From the NCBI RefSeq assembly GCF_001465295.1, contig NZ_CP011034.1, positions 1,110,001-1,142,000 of the forward strand: 32,000 nucleotides of DNA, read 5' to 3'. The translations under genes were made by a program, and so were the position numbers. The notes beneath the pieces were generated by a model that saw only the letters and a list, made by a program, of their open reading frames with translations, made no database searches and was not told the origin of the DNA. Positions 2,436 through 18,687 of the stretch are shown here, piece after piece (position 1 is the stretch's first letter; each line of letters starts with the position of its first letter). The stretch comes from Pseudoalteromonas translucida KMM 520. GTDB lineage: Bacteria; Pseudomonadota; Gammaproteobacteria; Enterobacterales; Alteromonadaceae.

Positions 2436-3224
2436 ATGTTCGAAGATGAATTACTTTATGGATACAGCAGTGTATTAATTGCAGTTACATTGTTTATAGC
2501 GATCGTTATTTTTAACGAAATAGGCTTTAGAGCAGGGCGCTTTATTCAAGGCAGAACCGACAGTGAAGTTAAGACGCTAACGGGTTCTATTCAGGGCAGT
2601 ATATTAGGTTTGTTAGCATTACTACTGGGTTTTACATTTAGCATGTCGATGCAACGGTATGATAACCGCAGCATGGCGTTAATAGATGAAGCAAACACGA
2701 TAGGCACAGCCATATTACGGGTTGAATTACTGCCACAAGAATACAAAAAACAAGCAAATGAATTATTTAAAGAGTATGTAGACTTACGAGTTGCTATAGG
2801 GCAATTAGATTTAACTAAACACGCGCAGCGTAACGACTACAATAATAAAATAGCCAACTTACAGCGTCAGTTATGGTCATTGGCTATCGCAGCCACAAAT
2901 GTTGATCCAAGGCCAGTCACCACAGGAGCGTTTGTAAAATCGCTTAATGATGTAATAGACAGCCAAGGAAAGCGAAATGCTTTATTACAAATGCATGTAC
3001 CTGAGGTGGTATTAATACTGCTCTTTATTGTGTTTATTTCGTCTGGCGGCATTATGGGTTATTCCGCAGGACTAAGTGGTAAGCGAATGATTGTGCCCAT
3101 TGTATTGGTTTCATTATTAATTACTTTAATTGTGTTTATTATTATTGATTTAGATCGGCCAAAACGCGGACTTATACAAGTAGATCAAACGGTAATGATT
3201 GAGGTTTCAGAAAGTATTAAATAG
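2436..3224 (+). CDS. DUF4239-like integral membrane protein
   Basis: Hydrophobic helices sit at the N- and C-termini around a helical middle. The GSILGLLALLLGFTFSMSMQRYDNR motif resembles DUF4239 family members as I recall them. The family assignment is from memory only. Confidence 0.55.
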   Translation: MFEDELLYGYSSVLIAVTLFIAIVIFNEIGFRAGRFIQGRTDSEVKTLTGSIQGSILGLLALLLGFTFSMSMQRYDNRSMALIDEANTIGTAILRVELLPQEYKKQANELFKEYVDLRVAIGQLDLTKHAQRNDYNNKIANLQRQLWSLAIAATNVDPRPVTTGAFVKSLNDVIDSQGKRNALLQMHVPEVVLILLFIVFISSGGIMGYSAGLSGKRMIVPIVLVSLLITLIVFIIIDLDRPKRGLIQVDQTVMIEVSESIK

Positions 3225-3280
3225 TATTAAAGAAGGGGTTTAATCTAAGCGCGTAAATAACAGTTATATTGTTTGCTGCT

Positions 3281-3312
3281 TTGGCGAACTAAATAATTAT
3301 TTAGTTCGCCAA
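3281..3312. repeat. Perfect 32-bp palindrome between convergent genes
   Basis: TTGGCGAACTAAATAA|TTATTTAGTTCGCCAA; the second half is the exact reverse complement of the first. No flanking T-tract on either strand. Confidence 0.9.
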
Positions 3313-3336
3313 TAAAAATGTTCGCGTAGTTTTAAA

Positions 3337-3933
3337 TTACAGTAACGCTTTAACCTCAGGATCTGCAAACGCTAATTCAAAGCGCTCTTTATAAAGCATT
3401 TGTAAGTCGTTGGTATGCATACTTGGAATGTCTTGCTCGCCAGTAAAGTTTTTATTTATAAGCGTAGCACCAGTGCGATCTTTAATTATTAGATCAAAGT
3501 TATACCATGAATTATCGGTAAAAGCGTGGTGATCATACTTCCATTCGTTAAGTACAATTATAATAGTCGCAGTATCGCTATCTGCTTTAATGTCATTAAT
3601 ATCGACCTGTGGTGTGGTAGCTATTAGCTTAGCGTTAATACCAGAGCGAATAAAACCAGCAGCAAGGCGTTTACCTAAATGTTGTGGCATAGTTTCGCCA
3701 GTAATGATGTTTTGTGTATAAGGTATACCAAAACCAGAGCGACTTAATCCTTCAAAACCAGAGAGTTTGTCACCATTTACAACATATGGGCGATGATCTA
3801 CCACTGCAATTTGTATTTCATCAACTTGGGGCTTATTTAATGTAGGAGCTGCTTGTTCTGCAGTCATAATGGCCGTACAGCCGGTAGTTAAAAGTAGGGT
3901 AACAGCGATAAAGATTGAAGCTATTTTGTTCAC
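3337..3933 (-). CDS. Putative lipoprotein
   Basis: Signal peptide with lipobox (MNKIASIFIAVTLLLTTGC). No family recognised. Confidence 0.7.
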   Translation of the reverse strand: MNKIASIFIAVTLLLTTGCTAIMTAEQAAPTLNKPQVDEIQIAVVDHRPYVVNGDKLSGFEGLSRSGFGIPYTQNIITGETMPQHLGKRLAAGFIRSGINAKLIATTPQVDINDIKADSDTATIIIVLNEWKYDHHAFTDNSWYNFDLIIKDRTGATLINKNFTGEQDIPSMHTNDLQMLYKERFELAFADPEVKALL

Positions 3934-4271
3934 ATTATATTCCTTTTATGTGTATTTATGATTAAATAAAACCAAATTACAGACCATTAGGTAATGCCAT
4001 GAAAGTAATAGATTTTATTGGGCAGGATAATATTAACAAAAGCTGAATAAATCAAGATGGTATTAACTTTTATTTTTTTAATGGGCTTAAAGTACTGCTT
4101 TTAGCTAGAGTAGGTATTTAAGATATTAAAATGTGAGTGAAATATATTACCAATTATTAAGCTTTTACAATGGCTGTATTTACACCTCGTTACAGTAATT
4201 TGTCGCACAAAGCTGCAAACTGTCTTTTTATTGTTATTATGAAATGAAATAACATTGTAAGGACGATAACC

Positions 4272-7200
4272 TTGAAACTACGCACTTTATTAACAGCAAT
4301 AGCAATTGCAGTTGCACCGGCAATATCGCCGATGGTTGCGGCTTATCAAACACAAGATACCCGCTTATTACGCTTTCCCGATATTCATAAAGAATCAGTC
4401 ACCTTTGTATATGCGGGCGATATTTATATAGCAAACATTAAAACAGGTAAAAGCACGCGCTTAACTGATCATATTGGCTTTGAAACCTTTCCTAAATTTT
4501 CGCCAGATGGCAGCCAAATCGCTTTTTCAGCCCAATATAATGGCAGCCGCCAAGTGTATGTAATGAACCGCGATGGCTCTGACTTAAAGCAACTGACCTA
4601 TTATAACGACGTAGGTGTAATGCCGCCGCGCGGTGGCTTTGATTATCGCGTACTTGATTGGACCCCAGACGGTAAGCATATTGTGTTTAGAGCTAACCGC
4701 ACCCCTTATAGTCAGCGTGTTGGCCGACCTTATATAGTGCCTGCTGCTGGTGGCCTAGAGCAACCATTAGCCATACCAGAAACTGGCGGTGGCATGTTGT
4801 CGCCCGATGGCAAACAGTATGTGTATACACCCATTGATCGCGAATTTCGTACTTGGAAACGCACCCGTGGCGGGCGCGCACAAGATGTGTGGGTTTACGA
4901 TTTAGAAAATAACAAATCAAAGCAATTAACAACCGACAGAGCAACCGACCAACAACCTACTTGGGTTAACAATAATATTTACTACGTGTCGGACAGAGAA
5001 TACACGCTAAATTTATACAAACATCAAGATGGCAAAAAACCGATAAAAGTAACGAACCACAGCGACTTTGATGTGCTTTGGCCCTCGGCTGGGCCCAGCG
5101 CCATAGTGTACGAAAATGGTGGCTATTTGTATCGCTTTGATGATGCTACGCAGCAATCTGAAAAGCTGAGTATAAATGTTCAAGGTAACCGTGAACATAC
5201 AATGGCCTACAGTAAAAATGTTAGTGACTTTATTGATTCAATGGACGTATCGCACGATGGAAAAAGAGTACTATTTACAGCCCGCGGCGAGCTGTTTTCT
5301 GTACCGGTTAAAAATGGCCCAACCCGAAACTTAAGCCATACGCCAAAAGGGCGTGAAATATCGGCTACATGGTCGCCCAATGGGCGCTATATTGCTTACA
5401 TGAGTGATGAAACGGGCGAGTACGAAATTTACCTAAAAGACAGAGCTAACAACAACCAAGTTAAGCAACTGACCAGTAATGGCAGTATTTGGCGTTTTGA
5501 GCCAGTTTGGTCACCAGATAATAAAAAGTTATTGTTTAGCGATCAAAATCATACCCTGTGGTGGCTCGATATTAACACCGGTAAGCAGCGTAAAATAGAT
5601 ACCGCAAAATATAATGAAGATGGTTTAACTAGCTATATTTGGTCGCCTAATAGCGAAGATATAGTGTTTGTTAAAAATAATGAAAACCGCTACGCCTCAT
5701 TATGGCATTACAATTTAAAAGACAAACGCGTTACTCGCTTAACAGACGACATGAGCAGTGAAACAAACCCAGCGTTTTCTCCCGACGGGCAGCAATTGTA
5801 TTTCACATCAGAGCGCGACTTTAATTTAACTTTTAGTAGCTACGAGTTTGACTACATGTTTAACAATGCAACCCGACTGTATTCGGTTGCAGTAAACAGT
5901 AAAATAAAACCACTTAATACACCGCTGAGTGACGAAATAAGCATTGTTGACTCAAAAGCAGATAAAGACGATGAAAAGTCAGCTAAAACACCCAGCAACT
6001 ATATAGAAAGTAACGGCTTTATGAACCGCGTTGTGGCGCTAAATGTACCGGCAGGAAATTACGGCGCACTAAGTGGCGTAAAAGACGGCGTATTAACACT
6101 CTCGGCAGGTGAGCTTAAGTTAGTGCCTAATGCCGTTGATGGTGAAGTCGCCACAATAGCAGCAGGAGTGAGTAATTATAAAGTGTCGGCTAATGCTGAG
6201 CATATTATTGCTCGTGCAGGAAAAAACATTAGCGTAATAAAGCCAGAAGCTAAACAAGACTTAAAAGCTACGCAACTTAACTTGCAAGACATGGTATTAA
6301 AAATTGACCCGCAAATCGAGTGGGCACAAATGTATCGTGAAGGCTGGCGCACCCTGCGTGACTGGTTTTATGACGAGAACCATCATGGCCAAGATTGGGA
6401 TGCTATTTTAGCGCGTTACCAACCTATGGCCGACGCTATTGCACATCGAGCCGACCTAGATTATGTACTAAGTGAAATAGCAGGCGAAATAAACTCAGGG
6501 CATATTTATGTTAACTCGGGCGATATGCCAATATCTCCTCGTTTACAGCATGGCTTATTGGGCGCTGAAATTAGCGCGCATAAATCAGGCTTTGTAAAAA
6601 TAGAGACTATTTTTAAAGGTGAAAACTGGCACGAGAACTTTCGCTCACCGCTAAACGAAACCGGCATTAACGCCAATGTAGGCGATTACATAATTGCAGT
6701 AAATGGCCGCTCAGTAAAAAGCGTAGTCAACTTTTACGAACTACTAGAAAACACCCAAGGTAAATCGGTTGAATTACTACTAAGTAAATCACCAAGCCTA
6801 AAAAACAGCTGGAAAGTAATGGTAACGCCTATTGCCAGCGAAACCGGATTGCGTTACTTACAGTGGGCACAATCGCGCGCTGAGTATGTTAATAAGCTTT
6901 CAGACGGGCGTATTGGCTACGTGCATTTACCTAACACCCATTACGAAGGTAACCGTTCGTTATTTAAAAACTTTTTACCGCAAACCAATAAAGAAGCGAT
7001 GATCATAGACGATCGTTACAATGGCGGCGGTTTTATACCTGAGCATATGATCACTTGGTTAGCACGTAAACCGCTAAATTACTGGAAACGCCGTGGTGTA
7101 GAGCCAACTAAAACCCCGCAGTTTGCACACGATGGCCCTAAAGCTATGCTGATCAACGGCTACTCTAGTTCAGGCGGCGACGCACTACCGTATTACTTTC

Positions 7201-7514
7201 GCCAAGCAGGTTTAGGCAAATTAATTGGTACGCGTACTTGGGGTGGTTTAATTGGTATTTCGGGCAACCCTGGGCTTGTAGATGGCGGCTCAGTTATTGC
7301 CGCTACTTTTAGAATTTTAGATAACGAAGGCAACTGGATCATTGAAAATGAAGGCGTAAGCCCAGACATAGAAGTGATTGATCGCCCAGAGCTTATTCAA
7401 GCCGGACAAGATCCGTCGATTGAACGCGCTGTAAAAGAGTTATTAAAAGAGCTTAAAGCAAATCCGAAAAAACCATTGGTAGTGCCAGCAGCACCGAGTG
7501 AGTTTGGTCGCTAA
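4272..7514 (+). CDS. Tricorn-protease-like S41 family peptidase (beta-propeller + PDZ + S41 domain), secreted
   Basis: 1080 aa. It has an N-terminal signal peptide and repeated TolB/WD40-like 'SPDG' blades (FSPDGSQIAF, WTPDGKHIVF, LSPDGKQYVY, WSPNGRYIAY, WSPDNKKLLF, FSPDGQQLYF). The C-terminal S41 region contains DDRYNGGG and GYSSSGGD. TTG start with AAGGA 8 nt upstream. Confidence 0.85.
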   Translation: MKLRTLLTAIAIAVAPAISPMVAAYQTQDTRLLRFPDIHKESVTFVYAGDIYIANIKTGKSTRLTDHIGFETFPKFSPDGSQIAFSAQYNGSRQVYVMNRDGSDLKQLTYYNDVGVMPPRGGFDYRVLDWTPDGKHIVFRANRTPYSQRVGRPYIVPAAGGLEQPLAIPETGGGMLSPDGKQYVYTPIDREFRTWKRTRGGRAQDVWVYDLENNKSKQLTTDRATDQQPTWVNNNIYYVSDREYTLNLYKHQDGKKPIKVTNHSDFDVLWPSAGPSAIVYENGGYLYRFDDATQQSEKLSINVQGNREHTMAYSKNVSDFIDSMDVSHDGKRVLFTARGELFSVPVKNGPTRNLSHTPKGREISATWSPNGRYIAYMSDETGEYEIYLKDRANNNQVKQLTSNGSIWRFEPVWSPDNKKLLFSDQNHTLWWLDINTGKQRKIDTAKYNEDGLTSYIWSPNSEDIVFVKNNENRYASLWHYNLKDKRVTRLTDDMSSETNPAFSPDGQQLYFTSERDFNLTFSSYEFDYMFNNATRLYSVAVNSKIKPLNTPLSDEISIVDSKADKDDEKSAKTPSNYIESNGFMNRVVALNVPAGNYGALSGVKDGVLTLSAGELKLVPNAVDGEVATIAAGVSNYKVSANAEHIIARAGKNISVIKPEAKQDLKATQLNLQDMVLKIDPQIEWAQMYREGWRTLRDWFYDENHHGQDWDAILARYQPMADAIAHRADLDYVLSEIAGEINSGHIYVNSGDMPISPRLQHGLLGAEISAHKSGFVKIETIFKGENWHENFRSPLNETGINANVGDYIIAVNGRSVKSVVNFYELLENTQGKSVELLLSKSPSLKNSWKVMVTPIASETGLRYLQWAQSRAEYVNKLSDGRIGYVHLPNTHYEGNRSLFKNFLPQTNKEAMIIDDRYNGGGFIPEHMITWLARKPLNYWKRRGVEPTKTPQFAHDGPKAMLINGYSSSGGDALPYYFRQAGLGKLIGTRTWGGLIGISGNPGLVDGGSVIAATFRILDNEGNWIIENEGVSPDIEVIDRPELIQAGQDPSIERAVKELLKELKANPKKPLVVPAAPSEFGR

Positions 7515-7544
7515 TAGCAATAAATTAAGCTGCTAGGTTACTCA

Positions 7545-7584
7545 ACTTGTTAGCTACTTTGCGTGTGCTTGGTAGCTAACAAGT
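7545..7584 (+). terminator. Stem-loop terminator after the tricorn-like gene
   Basis: Perfect 13-bp arms ACTTGTTAGCTAC / GTAGCTAACAAGT with a 14-nt loop, followed by TTTATT. Confidence 0.55.
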
Positions 7585-7640
7585 TTATTAGAGTATTATT
7601 AAAAGCGTGATACCGCGCTTTAGTTATAAGAGAGCTTATA

Positions 7641-7952
7641 GTGAAAAAATTATTACAGGTAGACTTTGATTTTGCAGGCCCGTTTGGGGAGCAAATGTCT
7701 GCAGCATTAAAAGATTTAGCCGAATCAATTAACCATGAACCCGGTGTTATTTGGAAAATTTGGACCGAAAACCAACAAGGTCAACTTGCTGGTGGTATTT
7801 ACCTATTTGAAGATGAAGCATCAGCTAATATGTATTTAACTATGCACACAGCACGCTTAAAGGCTATGGGGGTTGCCCAAGTTCGTGGCCAATTATTCGA
7901 TGTAAATCTGCCATTATCAGCGATTAATAACGCACCGCTTACTGTTAAATAG
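7641..7952 (+). CDS. ydhR: YdhR-like putative monooxygenase (dimeric alpha-beta barrel)
   Basis: Collinear similarity to E. coli YdhR as recalled (LLQ..F.F.GPFG, LAESIN.EPG..WK.WTE, AGGIYLF.DE.SA..YL..HTARLK). GTG start. Confidence 0.8.
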
Positions 7953-8138
7953 ATAAGGTTTTTGTTGGGCTGCTGTTTACGTTACCTTCGTTACATTAGC
8001 GCGGCCAAAAGTCGGGTTAAAAAGTATAATATCCATGTTGTAGCAAGCAACGAGTATTAGAATGTTTTGGCCGTTACGGAGTTGTTTTACCTAGGGATTA
8101 TTGGGCTTTCTAAAGGTCTGTTGGGATCCAAACAGATA

Positions 8139-8180
8139 AGCCACCTTTAATATCAACCACGGTAGTTATTAAAGGTGGCT
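8139..8180 (-). terminator. Hairpin downstream of the HNH gene; possible terminator of the ATPase-HNH cassette
   Basis: 13-bp perfect arms AGCCACCTTTAAT / ATTAAAGGTGGCT with a 16-nt loop. On the minus strand it is followed by a moderately T-rich stretch (TCTGTTTGG). It lies about 70 nt past the HNH stop. Confidence 0.35.
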
Positions 8181-8248
8181 GAATCAAGTAGTGGATGTTG
8201 AAACAGAGAAAGAAACGGTTAAGAGTTAATACCGGTAGCGATGTATTA

Positions 8249-8845
8249 TCATATAGAGTCAATCAGCAACTTTTTTAATACAATTAGCTTTTTAGTATCT
8301 TTCTTGAATTTTGCGTCTATTATCTGAGCCATTAGTTCCATGTCGCTAAGAATATCTTCTGAATCAAAATATCCCATATCTGCTAATCCTTTATTTAATT
8401 TACACACAGAATAAGTACAGCTTCCTTTTTCTGTTAGTGAGAAATAAAATCTCTCTCCAAATTTTATTAAGTGTTCATCGTAGGTATCAAAATGAGGATG
8501 AATAATTAAGAATTGAGATGATGGGGGGTATTTAGTTCTCTCTTTTTTTAATGGTAAGGGTTTAACTACATCAATATCTCGTTTGGCATTATTACAGTCA
8601 ACGCAAACAACACAAAGATTCTTGGGCGTAAAAATAAAATTTTTATACTTAGACTTAGGAGCTATGTGCTCAACTTGGCAGTTTGCCGCATTTCTTATGC
8701 TTGATCTTAAGTTTTCTAAGCTATCACTAGACCAATCAATATGATTAAATTCAGGAGTATCTACCACTTCTTTTATTAGGGCTTTTTGCTCCTTGGTAAA
8801 TTCTATTGCTCGTAACTCATTATCCATAAATTTTAAGTACCTCAT
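8249..8845 (-). CDS. HNH endonuclease (PtuB-like), downstream gene of the two-gene cassette
   Basis: HNH core VEHIAPKS...NLCVVCVDCNNAKRD (His60, Asn76, CxxCxxC-N). An alternative start at 8827 (MDNELR) gives ATGGATAA overlapping the ATPase stop. AT-rich relative to the flanks. Confidence 0.7.
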   Translation of the reverse strand: MRYLKFMDNELRAIEFTKEQKALIKEVVDTPEFNHIDWSSDSLENLRSSIRNAANCQVEHIAPKSKYKNFIFTPKNLCVVCVDCNNAKRDIDVVKPLPLKKERTKYPPSSQFLIIHPHFDTYDEHLIKFGERFYFSLTEKGSCTYSVCKLNKGLADMGYFDSEDILSDMELMAQIIDAKFKKDTKKLIVLKKLLIDSI

Positions 8846-10241
8846 TCAAAGAGTCAATGAGCTCCAATATAGGGTCATCTTTACTTATTTTTTGTTTCAT
8901 ACGATTGAGCATTTCTAGGTGTTTAATATCTAGTTCGTCAAAAGATTTGTATGTTTTTACTTTTGAATAAATCTGCATAGAAATTTTCAGAAGGTATTCA
9001 TTGCTGTGGCCTGGTGATTCAAAAACATTTACAAGCTGATAATCTGAAGAGCGTAAATAATGCTCTGATGCATCTAATAAAATATTTTTTTGAATATTTA
9101 AAATTTCACAGTTTGTTGTCGATATATTTGAAACTATAAGTGGTGAGTGCGTAGCAATAATAAAATGGCAACCAGAGTAAGTATTCAGAGATTGATTTAA
9201 AATATCTACAAAGCGTTCTTGCCATGATGGGTGCAAACTTATTTCTGGCTCATCAATTAACACAAGTGAGTTATCTTCGATTGAAGCAACAATTCCTAGA
9301 AATAGTAAGAAAAGACATTGCTCACCAGAGCTTCGAGCTGATAAAGATCTTACTTTGGCATTTGGTGATAAGTAACTTGCTTTTAAAGGTTGATCTTTGA
9401 GCGTTTCAATATCTGCTACAACAACTAAACCTGAACGTAATAAATCAGATAACTCTCTTTTATCAAATTCAATATCGTAAATTGAACTGGACGGTATTAA
9501 CTTTAAAGATTGATTGCTAAGGCTTAATAAAACTTCGGGTGAAGTATAAATAGTTTCAATTTTTGAAAGCAGATTTAACAGCTCACTTTTTTCAAAGTGG
9601 TAGGCTGCAGTTTGAAGTTTTAATTGAGCATCTAAAGATATTTTTTGATCCTTTATATCACCGGAGGCAATTATGAGAAGGTCTTGTTCTGTTATAGTTG
9701 GAGTTAACTTTATTTTTAATACACTATTAAATCCAAATTCATCTAGGAATGCTTTTAAAGCATTAACTTTGCGAAGATCAAAGGTTTGTTGTATCAGTAA
9801 CTGCTTTATTGCATTTGATGCGATACGGACTGACGGGCTCAAATCTTGTATGTATGGCTTAGAGCCAATATATGAATAAACCTTAGATAACCACGGATAT
9901 TCATCAGCCTTAAAATCATTTTGAAAACGTTCAAATTGACTCGTCGATGCACAGATTAGCTTTCGTGGTAAGTTAGCCCCAAGTAAACCTGTAATAGCTT
10001 CGTATTCATTTTTGTTATTGATAGCCCAGCGTAGCCTATCTTTACCAGTTTGTGTTTTGGGTTTGTATAGCTCAGCATATTTTGAGTAGTACTTTCTGAA
10101 TATATCCAATAACAATTCTGTTTTACCACTACCGTTATCACCTACGACTACAGTAAAAGCATGTTTATCATTATCAATTCCTGTGAAAAGTTTAGTATTA
10201 CCTATATTACGTGATCGAAATCCCATTTCTACACATTTCAT
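8820..10241 (-). CDS. ABC-type (AAA_21/AAA_15-like) ATPase (PtuA-like), upstream gene of the two-gene cassette
   Basis: Walker A GDNGSGKT (aa 34-41), ABC-signature-like SSGEQ (aa 304-308), Walker B LVLIDEPE (aa 326-333) and H-loop ATHSP (aa 363-367). A helical insertion of about 200 aa separates Walker A from the signature motif. The start is 15 nt after the lnt stop. Confidence 0.7.
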   Translation of the reverse strand: MKCVEMGFRSRNIGNTKLFTGIDNDKHAFTVVVGDNGSGKTELLLDIFRKYYSKYAELYKPKTQTGKDRLRWAINNKNEYEAITGLLGANLPRKLICASTSQFERFQNDFKADEYPWLSKVYSYIGSKPYIQDLSPSVRIASNAIKQLLIQQTFDLRKVNALKAFLDEFGFNSVLKIKLTPTITEQDLLIIASGDIKDQKISLDAQLKLQTAAYHFEKSELLNLLSKIETIYTSPEVLLSLSNQSLKLIPSSSIYDIEFDKRELSDLLRSGLVVVADIETLKDQPLKASYLSPNAKVRSLSARSSGEQCLFLLFLGIVASIEDNSLVLIDEPEISLHPSWQERFVDILNQSLNTYSGCHFIIATHSPLIVSNISTTNCEILNIQKNILLDASEHYLRSSDYQLVNVFESPGHSNEYLLKISMQIYSKVKTYKSFDELDIKHLEMLNRMKQKISKDDPILELIDSLNEVLKIYG

Positions 10242-10256
10242 TTTTCAATATATTAT

Positions 10257-11834
10257 TTAGTTCTTTATTGAGCCTACTTTAAATCTACTGGCAAACCCGC
10301 CAACACCTAGCAACAACACAAATCCCCACACAAACATATTGCCGTATTGGCTGTACACGCTGTCGCCTTGTATTAACTTAACGTCGGCTTTCATGGTGGT
10401 GGCTTCAAACTGTGGCATGCTTTGTTGCGTGTGGCTTATTGGGTCGTATACGCCGCTTACGCCGTTGTTAGTAACACGTATTAGTGGCCGCTGTAGCTCT
10501 AGAGCGCGCATGCGGGCTATTTGCATATGCTGGTGAGGGCCAATTGAGTCGCCAAACCAGGCATCGTTACTTACGGTAAAGAGTAAATCTGAGCTGTGCT
10601 GATAATTACCACGCACTAGGTCGGCAAATACTATTTCGTAGCATATCGCGGGCAGTATATTAAAGCCGTTAGCACGTAGGTTATTTTGTACTTTGTCGCC
10701 ACGAGTGAACGACGACATAGGTAAATCAAATAACGGTGCGATAGGGCGCAGTAAATCTTCAAATGGTACAAATTCGCCAATAGGGAGTAATTGGTGTTTT
10801 TGATAGCGGTTTTTATCTAGGTAGCGGTAGTGGCCGTGTTCATCTTCTTTATTTTTATTACCTACTACTATGAGGGTATTAAAAATAGTTTTAGTATCGA
10901 GTTGGTAGTCAACAACACCGGTAATTAGCGCGGTTTTATTAAATGAAGCGGCACTGTCTAAGCCTGCTAGATATGAGTCAGCAAGCGCTTCTATTTCGGG
11001 TACTGCGGCTTCGGGCCATACTATTAAGTCGGCGTCCCAATGCGTGCGGGTTAGGTCTTGGTATTTACTCATAGTGGTCCAAAACTGGCTGGGATCAAAG
11101 CGCAGACTTTGTTTTATATTACCTTGTACAAGTAATGTCGACATGCTTTTGCCTGAGTACTGTGCTGTGCCTGTGGTGTATGCACCGGCAAAAAGTAGTG
11201 CTAAAGCACTGCTGGTTATGGCCAATGTTTTAAAATCTTTTTGGCTTAGGCGATATAATGCAAAACCAATGGCAATACATACTAAGGTTAAACCAAATTC
11301 GCCAATATAAGGGGCAAGCAGTCTAAGTGGGCTGTCGGTTTGCGTATAACCAAAACTTAACCACGGAAAGCCGGTTAGTAAGTGTGCGCGTAAGTATTCG
11401 CTTATGGCAAAACTTACAATTAATAATGCGCCATAACTTTTAGGGCCGCTGGCAAAGCGAGTTGTTGCCCAAAAGGCAAGTGCAGGAAATAACGCTAAGT
11501 ATGAGCACAATAAGGCCATAAGCGCTAAAGAAGCGATTAATGGCATGCCGCCAAAAGTGGCTATAGATACATGTACCCAGCTAATACCAGCACCAAACCA
11601 ACCTAAACCAAATATAAAGCCATATTTAGCGGCTGTTTTTGCGTGTTTTTTACCGGTGTTTTTTGGATTAATACAAAAAATGATGGCAGCAAGGCTAAAA
11701 AACGCAATGGGCCAAATTTCAAAGGGGGCATAGGCAAAAGTTAAAACAAGGCCCGCAATTAATGCGAGCCATGCTTTTTTATCTTTTGCTAATAAGGTGA
11801 ACTTAGTTAGCAGAATCTTCACTGTAGTTATCAT
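10257..11834 (-). CDS. lnt: Apolipoprotein N-acyltransferase
   Basis: Multi-pass N-terminal membrane domain plus a C-terminal CN-hydrolase domain (LIVWPEAA, ICYE), in the conserved position after corC. ATG at 11834 (the ORF track uses the TTG at 11837). It overlaps the corC 3' end by about 32 nt. Confidence 0.9.
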   Translation of the reverse strand: MITTVKILLTKFTLLAKDKKAWLALIAGLVLTFAYAPFEIWPIAFFSLAAIIFCINPKNTGKKHAKTAAKYGFIFGLGWFGAGISWVHVSIATFGGMPLIASLALMALLCSYLALFPALAFWATTRFASGPKSYGALLIVSFAISEYLRAHLLTGFPWLSFGYTQTDSPLRLLAPYIGEFGLTLVCIAIGFALYRLSQKDFKTLAITSSALALLFAGAYTTGTAQYSGKSMSTLLVQGNIKQSLRFDPSQFWTTMSKYQDLTRTHWDADLIVWPEAAVPEIEALADSYLAGLDSAASFNKTALITGVVDYQLDTKTIFNTLIVVGNKNKEDEHGHYRYLDKNRYQKHQLLPIGEFVPFEDLLRPIAPLFDLPMSSFTRGDKVQNNLRANGFNILPAICYEIVFADLVRGNYQHSSDLLFTVSNDAWFGDSIGPHQHMQIARMRALELQRPLIRVTNNGVSGVYDPISHTQQSMPQFEATTMKADVKLIQGDSVYSQYGNMFVWGFVLLLGVGGFASRFKVGSIKN

Positions 11835-12687
11835 CAACCTTAGGAACGGTGACTTGCAGTTGCAAGATGCGACGATTGTCAGAGTTGGTTACTTTAAATT
11901 GGTAACCTTCTATATCAATGGTTTCGCCACGGCTTGGCATGTGGCCAAAGGCATGTAATACAGTGCCACCAATAGTATCGGCGTCATCTGTGCTGTAACC
12001 TGTTTTAAAATGCTCGTTAAAGTCATCAACAGGGGTTAGCGCTTGTACTACGTAAACATGCTTAGCAAGTTGGCGAATATCTTGTTGCTCTTCTTCTTCG
12101 TCGTGTTCGTCTTCTATTTCGCCCACGATTATTTCAAGAATATCTTCAATAGTGACTAAGCCCGATACACCGCCGTATTCATCAATAACAATAGCCATAT
12201 GGTAGCGTTGCTGACGAAATTCGTTAAGCAGGGTATCGACACGTTTACTTTCGGGTACTACCATTGCTGGGCGTAAATAATCGCGCAGTGAGGGCAGTAA
12301 GTCGTCCTTGTTTAAGATTAGGGGTAATAAATCTTTAGCGAGTAAAATCCCTTCTACATGGTCTTTATCTTCACACACCACCGGAAAGCGTGAGTGCGTA
12401 GAGTGAACCATCATAGGTATGAGCTCTTCAAGCGGGCTGTCGATCTCAAGGGTGATCATTTGTGAGCGCGGCACCATAATGTCTCGCACTTTAAGCTTAG
12501 ACACGCCAAGCACACCTTCAATCATCTCTTTGGTTTCTGGATCGATTACATCCCGCTCTTGCGCATCGGCAATTACTTCAACCAGCTCTTCTCTGTTCTG
12601 GGGTTCCCCTTGAAACTTTTGGGCTATTCGGCCCAGCCAGCTTTTTCCAGAAGAACCCTGGCTAGAATGCGAGTTACCGTCGCTCAT
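11803..12687 (-). CDS. corC: Magnesium/cobalt efflux protein CorC (CBS-pair + CorC_HlyC domains)
   Basis: Collinear similarity to E. coli CorC/YbeX ([66 protein letters not shown]). Confidence 0.9.
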
Positions 12688-12709
12688 TATATCTAATTAC
12701 TCCGTTTAT

Positions 12710-13168
12710 TTAAATTTCGTCCCGATATGGGTCTGCTATGTTTAGCTCAGCAAGTAATTGCTTTTCTATACTTTCCATCTCAAAAGCATCTTCACTCTTT
12801 ATATGGTCAAATCCAAGCAAATGCAAGCATCCATGAATAACCATATGAGCAAAGTGGTCATGAAATGACTTTTCTTGCTCAATTGCTTCAGCCAATACAA
12901 TTGCTGGGCAAATAACTAAATCACCTACTAAAGGAATATCTATTCCCGGTGGTGCTTCAAACTCAAACGACAGTACATTGGTAGGCTTGTTTTTACCACG
13001 GTAGTCGTTGTTAAGTTGTTGCGACTGCGCTTCGTCACTAATTACAATAGTGAGTTCAGATTCGTCGCGGTATTGGCTAAGGGCTTTGTCGGCCCAAAGC
13101 GCAAATTGTGCCTCGCTTGGTAAGTTGTCAAACTCACAGGCTATTTGTAAATCAAGTTCAGTGTTCAC
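12710..13168 (-). CDS. ybeY: Endoribonuclease YbeY (rRNA maturation)
   Basis: Zinc motif HGCLHLLGFDH plus KPTNVLSF and GDLVICP. I place the start at the GTG at 13168 (VNTELDLQIACE, matching the E. coli N-terminus), 4 nt after the ybeZ stop. The ORF-track start at 13207 would overlap ybeZ. Confidence 0.9.
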   Translation of the reverse strand: MNTELDLQIACEFDNLPSEAQFALWADKALSQYRDESELTIVISDEAQSQQLNNDYRGKNKPTNVLSFEFEAPPGIDIPLVGDLVICPAIVLAEAIEQEKSFHDHFAHMVIHGCLHLLGFDHIKSEDAFEMESIEKQLLAELNIADPYRDEI

Positions 13169-13172
13169 GGTA

Positions 13173-14231
13173 TTACTCTTTAGTAGCAGGCGGTTGTTGA
13201 GCGGCAAGCTGCTCTCGGGCTTTTTGCTTTTCTAGGCGCATAAGTCGCTCGCTTTCATCGTTGCGCTCGTAGGCTTCAACAATACGCGCAACCACTGGGT
13301 GGCGAACTATGTCTTGGGCTTTAAAGTGGTTAAAGCTTATTTCGTCTACGCCATCGAGTACTTCCATTGCATGGCGTAAGCCTGAGCGCACACCACGTGG
13401 TAAATCTACTTGTGTTATGTCGCCAGTAATAACCGCTTTTGAGTTAAACCCAATACGGGTTAAAAACATTTTCATTTGCTCTGCGGTGGTATTTTGGCTT
13501 TCATCTAAAATAATAAAGGCATCATTAAGCGTACGCCCACGCATATAAGCAAGTGGGGCAATTTCAATAACGTTTTTTTCGATTAGTTTTTCTACTTTTT
13601 CAAAGCCAAGCATTTCAAATAGCGCATCGTAAAGCGGGCGCAAGTATGGGTCGACCTTTTGGCTTAAATCGCCAGGTAAAAAACCGAGCTTTTCACCGGC
13701 TTCTACCGCTGGGCGGGTAAGCAATATACGGCGAATTTCTTGGCGCTCTAGGGCATCAACTGCAGTTGCCACAGCCAAGTACGTTTTGCCTGTACCAGCA
13801 GGGCCAATGCCAAAGGTAATATCGTGATGCAAAATATTAGAAACGTATATACCTTGGTTTTCGTTACGTGGCTTTATAACACCACGGCGCGTTTTAATCA
13901 CCATTTCTTTGGTGTAAGTGCTGGTTGTGGCGTCTTGTTCTAGGGCGTTTGATTCGGTAATGGCTAAGTGCACGTTGTCGGGTTCTATTTCGCCAATTTC
14001 GCCGCGCACAGGTTGAGTATCAATATAAAGGTTTTTTAAAATTTCGACAGCGCTGGCGCTACTGTAAGTTTTGCCTGTGACTTTAAAAAAGTTATCGCGG
14101 TGGATAATTTCAACACCAAGTCGGCGTTCAATTTGTTTGATGTTTTCGTCAAACGGGCCACATAAAGAAGAAAGGCGTTTGTTATCGGCAGGTTCTAAAT
14201 AAATCTCTAATGTTTTTAACTGATTACTCAA
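13173..14231 (-). CDS. ybeZ: PhoH-like ATPase YbeZ
   Basis: Walker A GPAGTGKTYLA, Walker B FIILDESQN, and the conserved miaB-ybeZ-ybeY context. Confidence 0.9.
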   Translation of the reverse strand: MSNQLKTLEIYLEPADNKRLSSLCGPFDENIKQIERRLGVEIIHRDNFFKVTGKTYSSASAVEILKNLYIDTQPVRGEIGEIEPDNVHLAITESNALEQDATTSTYTKEMVIKTRRGVIKPRNENQGIYVSNILHHDITFGIGPAGTGKTYLAVATAVDALERQEIRRILLTRPAVEAGEKLGFLPGDLSQKVDPYLRPLYDALFEMLGFEKVEKLIEKNVIEIAPLAYMRGRTLNDAFIILDESQNTTAEQMKMFLTRIGFNSKAVITGDITQVDLPRGVRSGLRHAMEVLDGVDEISFNHFKAQDIVRHPVVARIVEAYERNDESERLMRLEKQKAREQLAAQQPPATKE

Positions 14232-17426: not shown

Positions 17427-17501
17427 TGGCTGGGATACCAGGATTTGAACCTGGGAATGCCAGGATCAAAACCTGGTGCCTTACCGCTTGGCGATATCCC
17501 A
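17427..17501 (-). tRNA. tRNA-Gln(UUG), copy 1 (operon-distal)
   Basis: The reverse complement reads TGGGATATCGCCAAGCGGTAAGGCACCAGGTTTTGATCCTGGCATTCCCAGGTTCAAATCCTGGTATCCCAGCCA. 75 nt, anticodon loop TTTTGAT, encoded CCA. Close to E. coli tRNA-Gln(UUG). Confidence 0.95.
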
Positions 17502-17540
17502 ACTATAAATTTGTACAAGTTTTCGTTCTAGTTAAGAACA

Positions 17541-17625
<85 letters not shown>

Positions 17626-17695
17626 ATCACTAATTTGCTAATTTAAACTCTAAGCTAGAGCTATTCTTTAAGCAACTTTCCTTGGTAGAAGAAGT

Positions 17696-17770
17696 TGGCT
17701 GGGATACCAGGATTTGAACCTGGGAATGCCAGGATCAAAACCTGGTGCCTTACCGCTTGGCGATATCCCA
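17696..17770 (-). tRNA. tRNA-Gln(UUG), copy 2
   Basis: By eye identical to copy 1; 75 nt. Confidence 0.95.
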
Positions 17771-17808
17771 ACAAAGAATAATTGATAGTTTTATTTCTTA
17801 TCAAGAAA

Positions 17809-17893
<85 letters not shown>

Positions 17894-17977
17894 ATCGTTT
17901 GTGTAATAAAACACAGCTTGCAATTTTAAGCTCTTAGCTGAGCTATTCTTTAAACAACTTTCCTTGGTAGAAGAGGT

Positions 17978-18052
17978 TGGCTGGGATACCAGGATTTGAA
18001 CCTGGGAATGCCAGGATCAAAACCTGGTGCCTTACCGCTTGGCGATATCCCA
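17978..18052 (-). tRNA. tRNA-Gln(UUG), copy 3
   Basis: By eye identical to copy 1; 75 nt. Confidence 0.95.
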
Positions 18053-18090
18053 ACAAAGAATAATTGATAGTTTTATTTCTTATCAAGAAA

Positions 18091-18175
<85 letters not shown>

Positions 18176-18267
18176 ATTACTTTGTGTAATTAAACACTAG
18201 GTAGTTATTTTAAACTCTTCATTGAGCTGCAATTTAACTCTTGCAGAGCCATTTCTAAAAAAAGAAA

Positions 18268-18344
18268 TGGTGGCTAAGACGGGATTTGAACCTGTGACCC
18301 CATCATTATGAGTGATGTGCTCTAACCAGCTGAGCTACTTAGCC
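18268..18344 (-). tRNA. tRNA-Met(CAU), elongator, copy 1
   Basis: The reverse complement reads GGCTAAGTAGCTCAGCTGGTTAGAGCACATCACTCATAATGATGGGGTCACAGGTTCAAATCCCGTCTTAGCCACCA. 77 nt, anticodon loop CTCATAA. Close to E. coli metT/metU. Confidence 0.95.
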
Positions 18345-18349
18345 ATTGT

Positions 18350-18424
18350 TGGCTGGGATACCAGGATTTGAACCTGGGAATGCCAGGATCAAAACCTGGT
18401 GCCTTACCGCTTGGCGATATCCCA
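18350..18424 (-). tRNA. tRNA-Gln(UUG), copy 4
   Basis: By eye identical to copy 1. Only 5 nt separate it from the downstream tRNA-Met. Confidence 0.95.
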
Positions 18425-18460
18425 ACAAAAACAATTGATAGTTTTAATTCTTATCAAGAA

Positions 18461-18545
<85 letters not shown>

Positions 18546-18610
18546 ATTACTTTGTGTAATTAAACACTAGGTAGTTATTTTAAACTCTTCATTGAGTAAC
18601 AAAAAAATAA

Positions 18611-18687
18611 TGGTGGCTAAGACGGGATTTGAACCTGTGACCCCATCATTATGAGTGATGTGCTCTAACCAGCTGAGCTACTTAGCC
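18611..18687 (-). tRNA. tRNA-Met(CAU), elongator, copy 2 (operon-proximal)
   Basis: By eye identical to Met copy 1; 77 nt. Confidence 0.95.

Follow-up and report, generated by a model that had tools for sequence, protein, structure and literature searches.

A Septu type I cassette with a probably disabled ptuB allele in a cargo-swapping slot downstream of lnt in Pseudoalteromonas translucida KMM 520

The locus and its genes

The window analysed in this study, that is, the whole stretch of 32,000 nucleotides (nt) from Pseudoalteromonas translucida KMM 520, contains a cassette of two genes, ptuA and ptuB, which encode the ABC-type ATPase and the HNH nuclease of the defence system Septu. The two genes are adjacent, overlapping and in the same orientation on the minus strand, with ptuA first, and they are flanked by lnt on one side and by the relic of an RDD-family gene on the other. 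We are close to certain that the cassette is a Septu type I system residing in a chromosomal hotspot; the fuller reading, a Septu type I cassette in a defence hotspot together with a probably disabled ptuB allele, is favoured with less assurance. A first-pass annotation of the window had regarded the pair as a horizontally acquired, nuclease-based defence module, either a divergent Septu or an undescribed relative of it. In what follows, L001-L089 are lnt loci used for comparison and P0121 is a database PtuB protein. The features on which the argument depends are these (aa, amino acids).

8820-10241, minus strand: ptuA, Septu ABC-type ATPase; 473 aa if the first ATG is used, 468 aa from the probable conserved start at 10226
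8249-8845, minus strand: ptuB, deletion allele of the Septu HNH nuclease gene; 198 aa if the first ATG is used, 192 aa from the likely start ATG at 8827
8692-8693, minus strand: junction of the 63-nt in-frame deletion in ptuB, from DNA alignment with L081
7957-8226, plus strand: relic of an RDD-family gene, 3' end, from blastn and tblastn
10257-10279, minus strand: left cassette junction, within the last lnt codons, from junctions compared among the window, L081, L089, L010 and L004
8139-8180, no strand: 20-nt inverted repeat within the RDD relic, from a repeat search

The open reading frames (ORFs) of 473 and 198 aa that had been reported earlier are both present, and the motifs read in them were found again: GDNGSGKT, SSGEQ, LVLIDEPE and ATHSP in the longer protein, and the HNH motif VEHIAPKS...NLCVVCVDCNNAKRD in the shorter one. 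The overlapping stop and start also proved real and can be refined to 26 nt when counted from the first ptuB ATG, or to 8 nt (ATGGATAA) when counted from the ptuB start that relatives share and that the public record (192 aa, P0121) adopts. As for ptuA, the start-codon comparison places the upstream ATG out of frame or before a stop in two related cassettes, and hence ATGGGATTT at 10226 is probably the conserved start, for a protein of 468 aa. Both ydhR (PF08803, E=3e-41) and lnt (LNT_N and CN_hydrolase) flank the pair as was stated; what does not stand is that the pair lies alone between them, the RDD-family pseudogene relic being at 7957-8226. Nor is ydhR a conserved neighbour, for it is found near lnt in only one of the 80 species-representative Pseudoalteromonas loci around lnt which constitute our sister survey.

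The composition of the cassette sets it apart from its surroundings. Its G+C content is 0.324 versus 0.408 for the rest of the window, it forms the lowest-G+C 2-kb stretch of the window, about 4 standard deviations under other segments of the same size, and the G+C at third codon positions of its genes is 0.23-0.27 versus about 0.27-0.43 in neighbouring genes. The first-pass statement that the pair is AT-richer than its flanks is borne out by these values, and the five hand counts of G+C given with it (19, 22, 20, 26 and 34) were reproduced exactly.

Assignment of the pair to Septu type I

The Septu identity of both proteins is given by profile comparison with hidden Markov models (HMMs). PtuA matches the PADLOC PtuA model PDLC00266 over its full length with E=2.2e-196 and 651.8 bits, residues 1-472 lying on profile positions 1-482 of 483, and PtuB matches the PADLOC PtuB model PDLC00325 with E=3e-48. 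Pfam AAA_21 and AAA_15 also exceed their cutoffs in PtuA, and so the similarity to defence-associated ATPase and HNH families that had been put forward is found. The other possibility raised at first, an undescribed relative of Septu, falls away, since PADLOC already has a Septu subfamily into which the pair fits, and cassettes nearly identical to it (PtuA 92%) are present in further public genomes of Pseudoalteromonas. Judged from its sequence, the pair belongs to a catalogued Septu type I subfamily and its architecture holds nothing new.

For PtuB, the Pfam HNH model scores just under threshold (19.5 versus 21.4 bits); because most intact PtuB relatives are likewise without a recorded Pfam HNH match, this weak score is a property of the family. 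A single-sequence search of the PDB with the window PtuB gave no match at E<=0.1, and the profile of the PtuB family matches solved retron PtuB chains there (Ec83, Ec78/Eco7, TIGR02646 family). Residues E59, H60, N76, N85 and K88 occupy invariant columns of the PtuB family and are all kept in the window PtuB.

By its motifs, ptuA looks intact. The protein has Walker A at G34-T41 (with K40), the signature at S304-Q308, Walker B at D330/E331 and the H-loop at H365, and it retains every invariant column found in 46 homologs, the window included: G34, N36, G37, G39, K40, S304, S305, G306, Q308, D330, E331 and H365. Models of other defence ATPases in PADLOC (AriA, PDC-M01A, AbiL) match it only over the C-terminal ABC motifs, those of AriA with about 70 bits over residues ~289-371 only, versus 652 bits for the PtuA model. 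In the phmmer search of the PDB, the similarity to solved PtuA chains is likewise confined to the signature and Walker B region. An AlphaFold2 model built with 46 homologs reached a mean predicted local distance difference test (pLDDT) of 86.7 and a predicted TM-score (pTM) of 0.87, and the best 45 Foldseek matches of this model in the PDB are all PtuA chains (Retron-Eco7/Ec78, Ec83, and E. coli Septu 8EEA/8EE4), followed by AriA. These matches have probability 1.0 and E down to 1e-9, with structural-alignment identities to solved PtuA chains of 12-16%; their TM-scores are only 0.2-0.36, a multidomain monomer model being compared with complexed chains. Low TM-scores are to be expected for a flexible model of this kind, and we take the predicted fold as supportive, not decisive.

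Close relatives of PtuA, at least 85% identical, are from Pseudoalteromonas only, and the next ones, at ~50%, are from Shewanella and Vibrio. In plasmid and phage collections, only relatives at up to about 31% full-length identity were found and no donor element was identified; among these (~30%), small plasmids carry some, with an HNH gene alongside, and a Vibrio phage carries one. An exact-sequence look-up of the window PtuA and of P0121 found neither on record.

Two related kinds of system were considered and rejected. For a retron-associated Septu, there is no reverse transcriptase (RT) ORF in the window neighbourhood of the cassette, Rfam gave no match in 7400-10700 at gathering or E<=1 thresholds, and the NCBIfam retron-Ec78 models stay far under their cutoffs, with 61.8 bits versus 500 for NF041760 (PtuA) and 16 bits versus 150 for NF041761 (PtuB). 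The lack of an RT gene, of an RNA family and of an Ec78 equivalog above cutoff together identify the system as Septu type I of the stand-alone kind, as opposed to a retron I-A. PARIS was rejected as the AriA models cover only the ~80 residues mentioned above and the partner is an HNH protein, not the Toprim protein AriB.

An in-frame deletion in ptuB

When aligned with L081 at the DNA level, the window ptuB lacks 63 nt, or 21 codons, in frame between 8692 and 8693, and the deletion is bounded by short TAAGA/TAAGG microhomologies. The 21 residues lost, S/N-HYRxEQNFLCCYCKNxISxR, comprise the first CxxC and 17 neighbouring residues, and in relatives the Y, R, Q and CxxC of this segment are nearly invariant. 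In an alignment of 87 database homologs, 86/86 others (~30-90% identity) keep the segment, and it is lacking only in the window and in P0121, to which the window PtuB is 100% identical and which is recorded as 'hypothetical protein PTRA_a1195, Pseudoalteromonas translucida KMM 520'. The intact HNH core that the earlier reading implied has to be given up, the first CxxC zinc ligands being absent. The profile scores show the same loss: the window PtuB obtains 162 bits with PDLC00325 in an alignment of two stretches, versus 217-221 bits in one stretch for intact relatives, so that the deletion costs about 58 bits.

What the missing residues do can be approached through solved homologs. In the profile-to-PDB alignments displayed, solved PtuB chains of retron Ec83 and of type I-A (TIGR02646) have their 'CAYC' opposite the lost CxYC; the Ec78/Eco7 PtuB chains are also matched by the family profile, the residue alignments being displayed for other chains only. 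Retron-Eco7 PtuB has a zinc finger formed by C43/C46/C78/C90 around the catalytic H57, and the quadruple mutant with these cysteines changed to alanine loses defence (PMC12673091). By analogy, the lost segment would supply two of the four zinc ligands as well as the strand leading into the catalytic histidine. In the AlphaFold2 model of the window PtuB, the HNH core (residues 52-93) has pLDDT <50, and the N- and C-terminal domains reach 80-93; a fold search with a model of such low confidence is meaningless. Seen against its relatives, the incomplete zinc finger is a defect of the allele, not the sign of a different family.

From the alignments and the model it seems rather probable that the ptuAB allele of the window is non-functional and was recently inactivated.

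Inactivated or functional allele

Several points weigh against an inactivated allele. The deletion is in frame and the ptuB ORF is otherwise intact, with H60, N76, N85, C55 and the C78/C81/C84 cluster all kept. The changes specific to this ptuB lineage, 9 synonymous and 4 non-synonymous, carry no signal of relaxed selection, small as the counts are, and hence the deletion is either very recent or tolerated. Many HNH domains, for example that of Cas9, work without a zinc finger. Moreover, the published zinc-finger mutant replaced all four cysteines, and this in a distant PtuB; the low confidence of the modelled HNH core has no model of an intact homolog beside it; and the deletion rests on a single assembly.

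On these grounds, one may suppose that, deletion or not, Septu still functions here, the shortened PtuB folding by means of C55/C78/C81/C84 or without zinc and still acting as the nuclease under PtuA control, possibly with altered stability or specificity. We consider this possible, though the less likely case. It is further favoured by the PtuA-binding C-terminal domain of PtuB, which is kept and confidently modelled, by a pairwise ratio of non-synonymous to synonymous divergence (dN/dS) of 0.14, and by a fully intact PtuA. It has to contend, however, with the strong constraint that is indicated by the presence of the segment in all other homologs down to about 30% identity, with the fact that two ligands of a finger required in Eco7 PtuB (PMC12673091) are gone, with the unconfident model of the remaining core, and with the consideration that, by chance alone, a third of random deletions keep the frame. 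A more specific proposal, namely a natural functional 'half-zinc-finger' PtuB whose metal site is rebuilt by C55/C78/C81/C84 or dispensed with, and whose changed regulation or substrate was selected in this lineage, appears doubtful to us; in a weaker version, PtuA would be retained alone for some function, with a catalytically dead PtuB as scaffold.

It is very unlikely that the deletion arose in assembly or cloning, as an artefact of a single genome record, and that the real strain has an intact Septu. Only one database protein (P0121, with one member and one contig) shares the deletion, and the public assembly of L089 shows apparent sequencing-error frameshifts in lnt and ptuA; against this, the window matches the independently annotated protein exactly, and a clean in-frame loss of 63 nt with microhomology is typical of replication slippage, not of homopolymer or consensus error. 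Least credible of all is a non-immune ABC-ATPase/HNH module, such as an AbiEii-type (AAA_21) addiction module or a DNA-repair factor, which the generic Pfam names (AAA_21 'putative AbiEii toxin') and the ParE toxins of the slot described below might suggest, but which is opposed by full-length matches specific to PtuA/PtuB where AriA and AbiL match only the C-terminal ATPase motifs, by the first place of PtuA among the fold matches, and by the defence shown experimentally for Septu members (PMC13096335, PMC12819146).

The reading we prefer is a Septu type I cassette whose ptuB was probably inactivated recently. Of the nuclease-based defence module first proposed, the Septu family of the pair stands, and a working nuclease defence is doubtful in view of the PtuB deletion.

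The slot between lnt and the RDD gene

The relatives of its lnt place the window in the genus Pseudoalteromonas. Downstream of lnt, ptuA and ptuB are absent in 80/80 loci of the sister survey. Two other lineages have the cassette: one with 92% identical PtuA directly follows lnt in the eight contigs L081-L088, which come from three NCBI assemblies and from metagenomes, and a Septu cassette also lies downstream of lnt in the P. espejiana chromosome (L089, CP184638.1); in all of these the cassette has identical junctions and is followed by a convergent RDD-family gene. In the window, the relic at 7957-8226 corresponds to residues about 235-336 of the RDD-family membrane protein, that is, to the C-terminal ~100 codons, with internal stops and frameshifts. 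By blastn it is 80% identical to L081-L088 and 68-70% to L001, L004, L005, L007 and L010, and in tblastn the match of the L081 RDD protein to it is split over two frames with stops; the RDD gene is intact in L081, L004 and L010. Because 7957-8226 is the decayed 3' end of the RDD gene, the ancestral order was lnt, ptuA, ptuB and the convergent RDD gene. The relic is, on this alignment, the mark of the original right-hand border of the slot, and a later rearrangement would have brought the segment of ydhR and a tricorn-like peptidase beside the cassette. The locus is eroding, the adjacent RDD gene being truncated and decayed.

The states of the slot were compared among species in which lnt and the RDD gene are still convergent.

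Empty slot, about 190-310 nt: L010, L013, L020, L022
Type XII retron RT-TIR (PADLOC RT-TIR_XII, E=2e-195): L004
Transmembrane KAP/PifA-like NTPase: L002, L007 (split copy in L006)
GmrSD_N/NsnA-like gene and ParE toxin: L005
ParE toxins: L014, L023, L079
ORFs without assignment: remaining filled loci

The cargo of the slot across the sister loci is AT-rich throughout, with 31-37% G+C. Among the individual occupants, the retron of L004 (Pseudoalteromonas sp. FUC4; 11574-13169, minus strand in the locus) is a single gene with Pfam RVT_1 and TIR_2, beside which ~240 nt of non-coding DNA could hold a non-coding RNA (ncRNA). The KAP protein, at 11649-14000 in L002 and at 11649-14000 in L007, has 783 aa, N-terminal transmembrane segments and a weak PifA match, and L006 (11610-13918), with the NTPase split into two ORFs, is the third species with KAP cargo. 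In L005, a GmrSD_N (DUF262)/NsnA-like gene at 12333-13394 is accompanied at 13773-14063 by a ParE-family toxin of 96 aa, and a slot ParE toxin recurs in four species (L005, L014, L023, L079). ORFs without any family match are exemplified by those of 262 aa in L001, 163 aa in L008 and 165 aa in L014.

The junctions themselves are sharply placed. Septu carriers end lnt with ...RFKVGSIK(N/S), versus ...RFR(S/K) in genomes without the cassette, and the right cassette junction is at the RDD stop codon. The Septu insertion rewrote the lnt C-terminus, as is seen when 10257-10279 of the window and 9945-9969 of L081 (...RFKVGSIKN*) are set beside 11500-11518 of L010 (...RFRS*). No integrase, transposase or flanking direct repeats were found at the cassette, where only chance-level short repeats occur, and the tRNA genes are 7 kb off and do not adjoin it. 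Cargo is likely exchanged through homologous recombination in the flanking core genes. Compared with the L081 type, the cassette has a synonymous divergence (dS) of 0.35-0.47, no higher than that of the flanking corC (0.55) or lnt (0.94), and a dN/dS of 0.11-0.14; since dS does not exceed that of the flanks and dN/dS is this low, the cassette has been passed down, or exchanged inside the clade, while under purifying selection.

In L089 (3019-6008), both lnt and ptuA are frameshifted, ptuA being spread over three frames across residues ~245-309. An independent decay of ptuA was not concluded from this, for lnt in the same record is frameshifted too, which points to sequencing errors; as lnt is essential, the frameshifts are more likely errors than signs of pseudogenes.

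That the cassette is horizontally acquired accessory DNA, as was first supposed, agrees with its foreign composition, with its absence from all loci of the sister survey and with the other defence genes which the slot carries elsewhere. The slot and its cargo lend support to the early notion of a defence islet.

Expression and proposed mechanism

ptuA starts 15-30 nt after the lnt stop, and no sigma-70-like site was found on the minus strand from ptuA to 11000, the total of promoter-like sites being below shuffle expectation in what is a weak consensus scan. As the short gap leaves no room for an own promoter outside lnt and no promoter-like site was found, the cassette is probably transcribed by read-through, either of the ybeZYX-lnt operon or from within lnt; it speaks against this reading that the missing ptuA promoter comes from the weak consensus scan only. 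Translation of ptuB would be coupled to that of ptuA. At 8139-8180, 70-110 nt past the ptuB stop, the inverted repeat (arms of 20 nt, 90% complementary, 2 nt between them) may serve to stop transcription of the convergent ydhR and ptuB; it was not among the calls of the terminator scan, as no T-run follows it, and the homologous L081 sequence forms no good hairpin.

As to how such a system acts, PMC12819146 describes stand-alone PtuA as an inflammasome-like oligomer which binds PtuB via helical C-terminal domains, with DNA nicking by PtuAB reduced by ATP and activity released by phage cues. The Septu HNH, once released, makes nicks in DNA or, in the case of E. coli, cleaves tRNA-Tyr, and the replication of the phage aborts (PMC12819146, PMC13096335). 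Other Septu systems have been shown in experiments to defend against phage (PMC13096335, PMC12819146), the resistance depending on ATPase and HNH residues (PMC13096335). The PtuAB of the window would share this architecture. Its HNH module, however, would likely be unable to fold or to bind zinc, leaving a misfolded or inactive nuclease, and the cassette is probably inert in KMM 520, a recently crippled Septu that would no longer be defending.

Other features of the window

Three further observations concern the remainder of the window. At 17427-18687 on the minus strand, 10 tRNA genes are densely packed in a repeating order (Gln-Leu x3, Met, Gln-Leu, Met), the copies being near-identical and tRNA-Tyr not among them; such arrays are typical of fast-growing marine gammaproteobacteria. 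The block 2436-7952 contains a bestrophin-like gene, an unassigned gene of 198 aa, a 1080-aa tricorn-type S41 peptidase and ydhR, and its distance to lnt and its order vary among sister species, this side of lnt being generally prone to rearrangement. Just past the peptidase stop, at 7539-7590, a 19-nt inverted repeat (89% complementary, 14-nt loop) is probably the terminator of that gene.

Implications

Two Pseudoalteromonas genes so far labelled 'hypothetical' or 'ATP-binding' can now be labelled Septu, which is of little import beyond annotation. The locus is mildly interesting for its natural zinc-finger deletion allele and for the lnt/RDD slot with its swapping of cargo. Automated defence finders would count the system as present despite the lost zinc-binding segment, a reminder that an HMM match does not equal an intact system, and this natural allele could serve directly to test whether stand-alone Septu needs the zinc finger of its PtuB. 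The slot, where cargo comes and goes between two fixed core genes without mobility genes, amounts in turn to a convenient natural experiment, and unknown defence genes of marine bacteria could be sought there.

Comparison with known systems

The nearest known systems are those of stand-alone Septu type I, represented by E. coli Septu (PDB 8EE4/8EE7/8EEA) and Septu Ec-B88. The window cassette is like them in the overlapping two-gene order of ptuA and ptuB, in a PtuA of ~465-470 aa with a predicted ABC ATPase fold and, judging by its length, without retron-specific additions, and in a PtuB of ~200-220 aa that joins an HNH domain to a helical C-terminal one. It differs from E. coli Septu in that its PtuA is only 12-16% identical to the solved PtuA chains and its PtuB is without the first CxxC.

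Retrons of type I-A (Retron-Eco7/Ec78, Ec83) have a homologous ATPase-nuclease pair and provide the best PDB matches in sequence and fold, and the zinc-finger HNH of their PtuB is common to the family of the window PtuB. In contrast to them, the window locus has no reverse transcriptase and no ncRNA/multicopy single-stranded DNA (msDNA) locus, and its PtuA (468-473 aa) is ~80 residues shorter than retron PtuA (542-552 aa). Stand-alone PtuA is known to be without the N-terminal retron-binding extension and the helical flap of retron PtuA (PMC12819146), and the shorter window PtuA, compared by length only, would be in line with this. With PARIS AriA and other OLD/ABC-type ATPases (Gabija GajA, PD-T4/MADS), the window PtuA shares the C-terminal ABC ATPase motifs; AriA is the top phmmer match in the PDB for residues 291-372, a likeness limited to ~80 residues, and the partner of AriA is the Toprim protein AriB, whereas that of PtuA here is an HNH protein.

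Pseudomonas, E. coli and Vibrio have been described as having chromosomal hotspots in which defence genes gather between conserved core genes. The lnt/RDD slot was not met in the literature on Pseudoalteromonas Septu, where only matches to the word 'septum' were returned by a search aimed at Septu and not at the hotspot. Like the known hotspots, it has fixed core flanks, AT-rich interchangeable cargo, empty alleles and no integrase in the cargo; it differs from them in having its junctions within the final codons of the two convergent genes.

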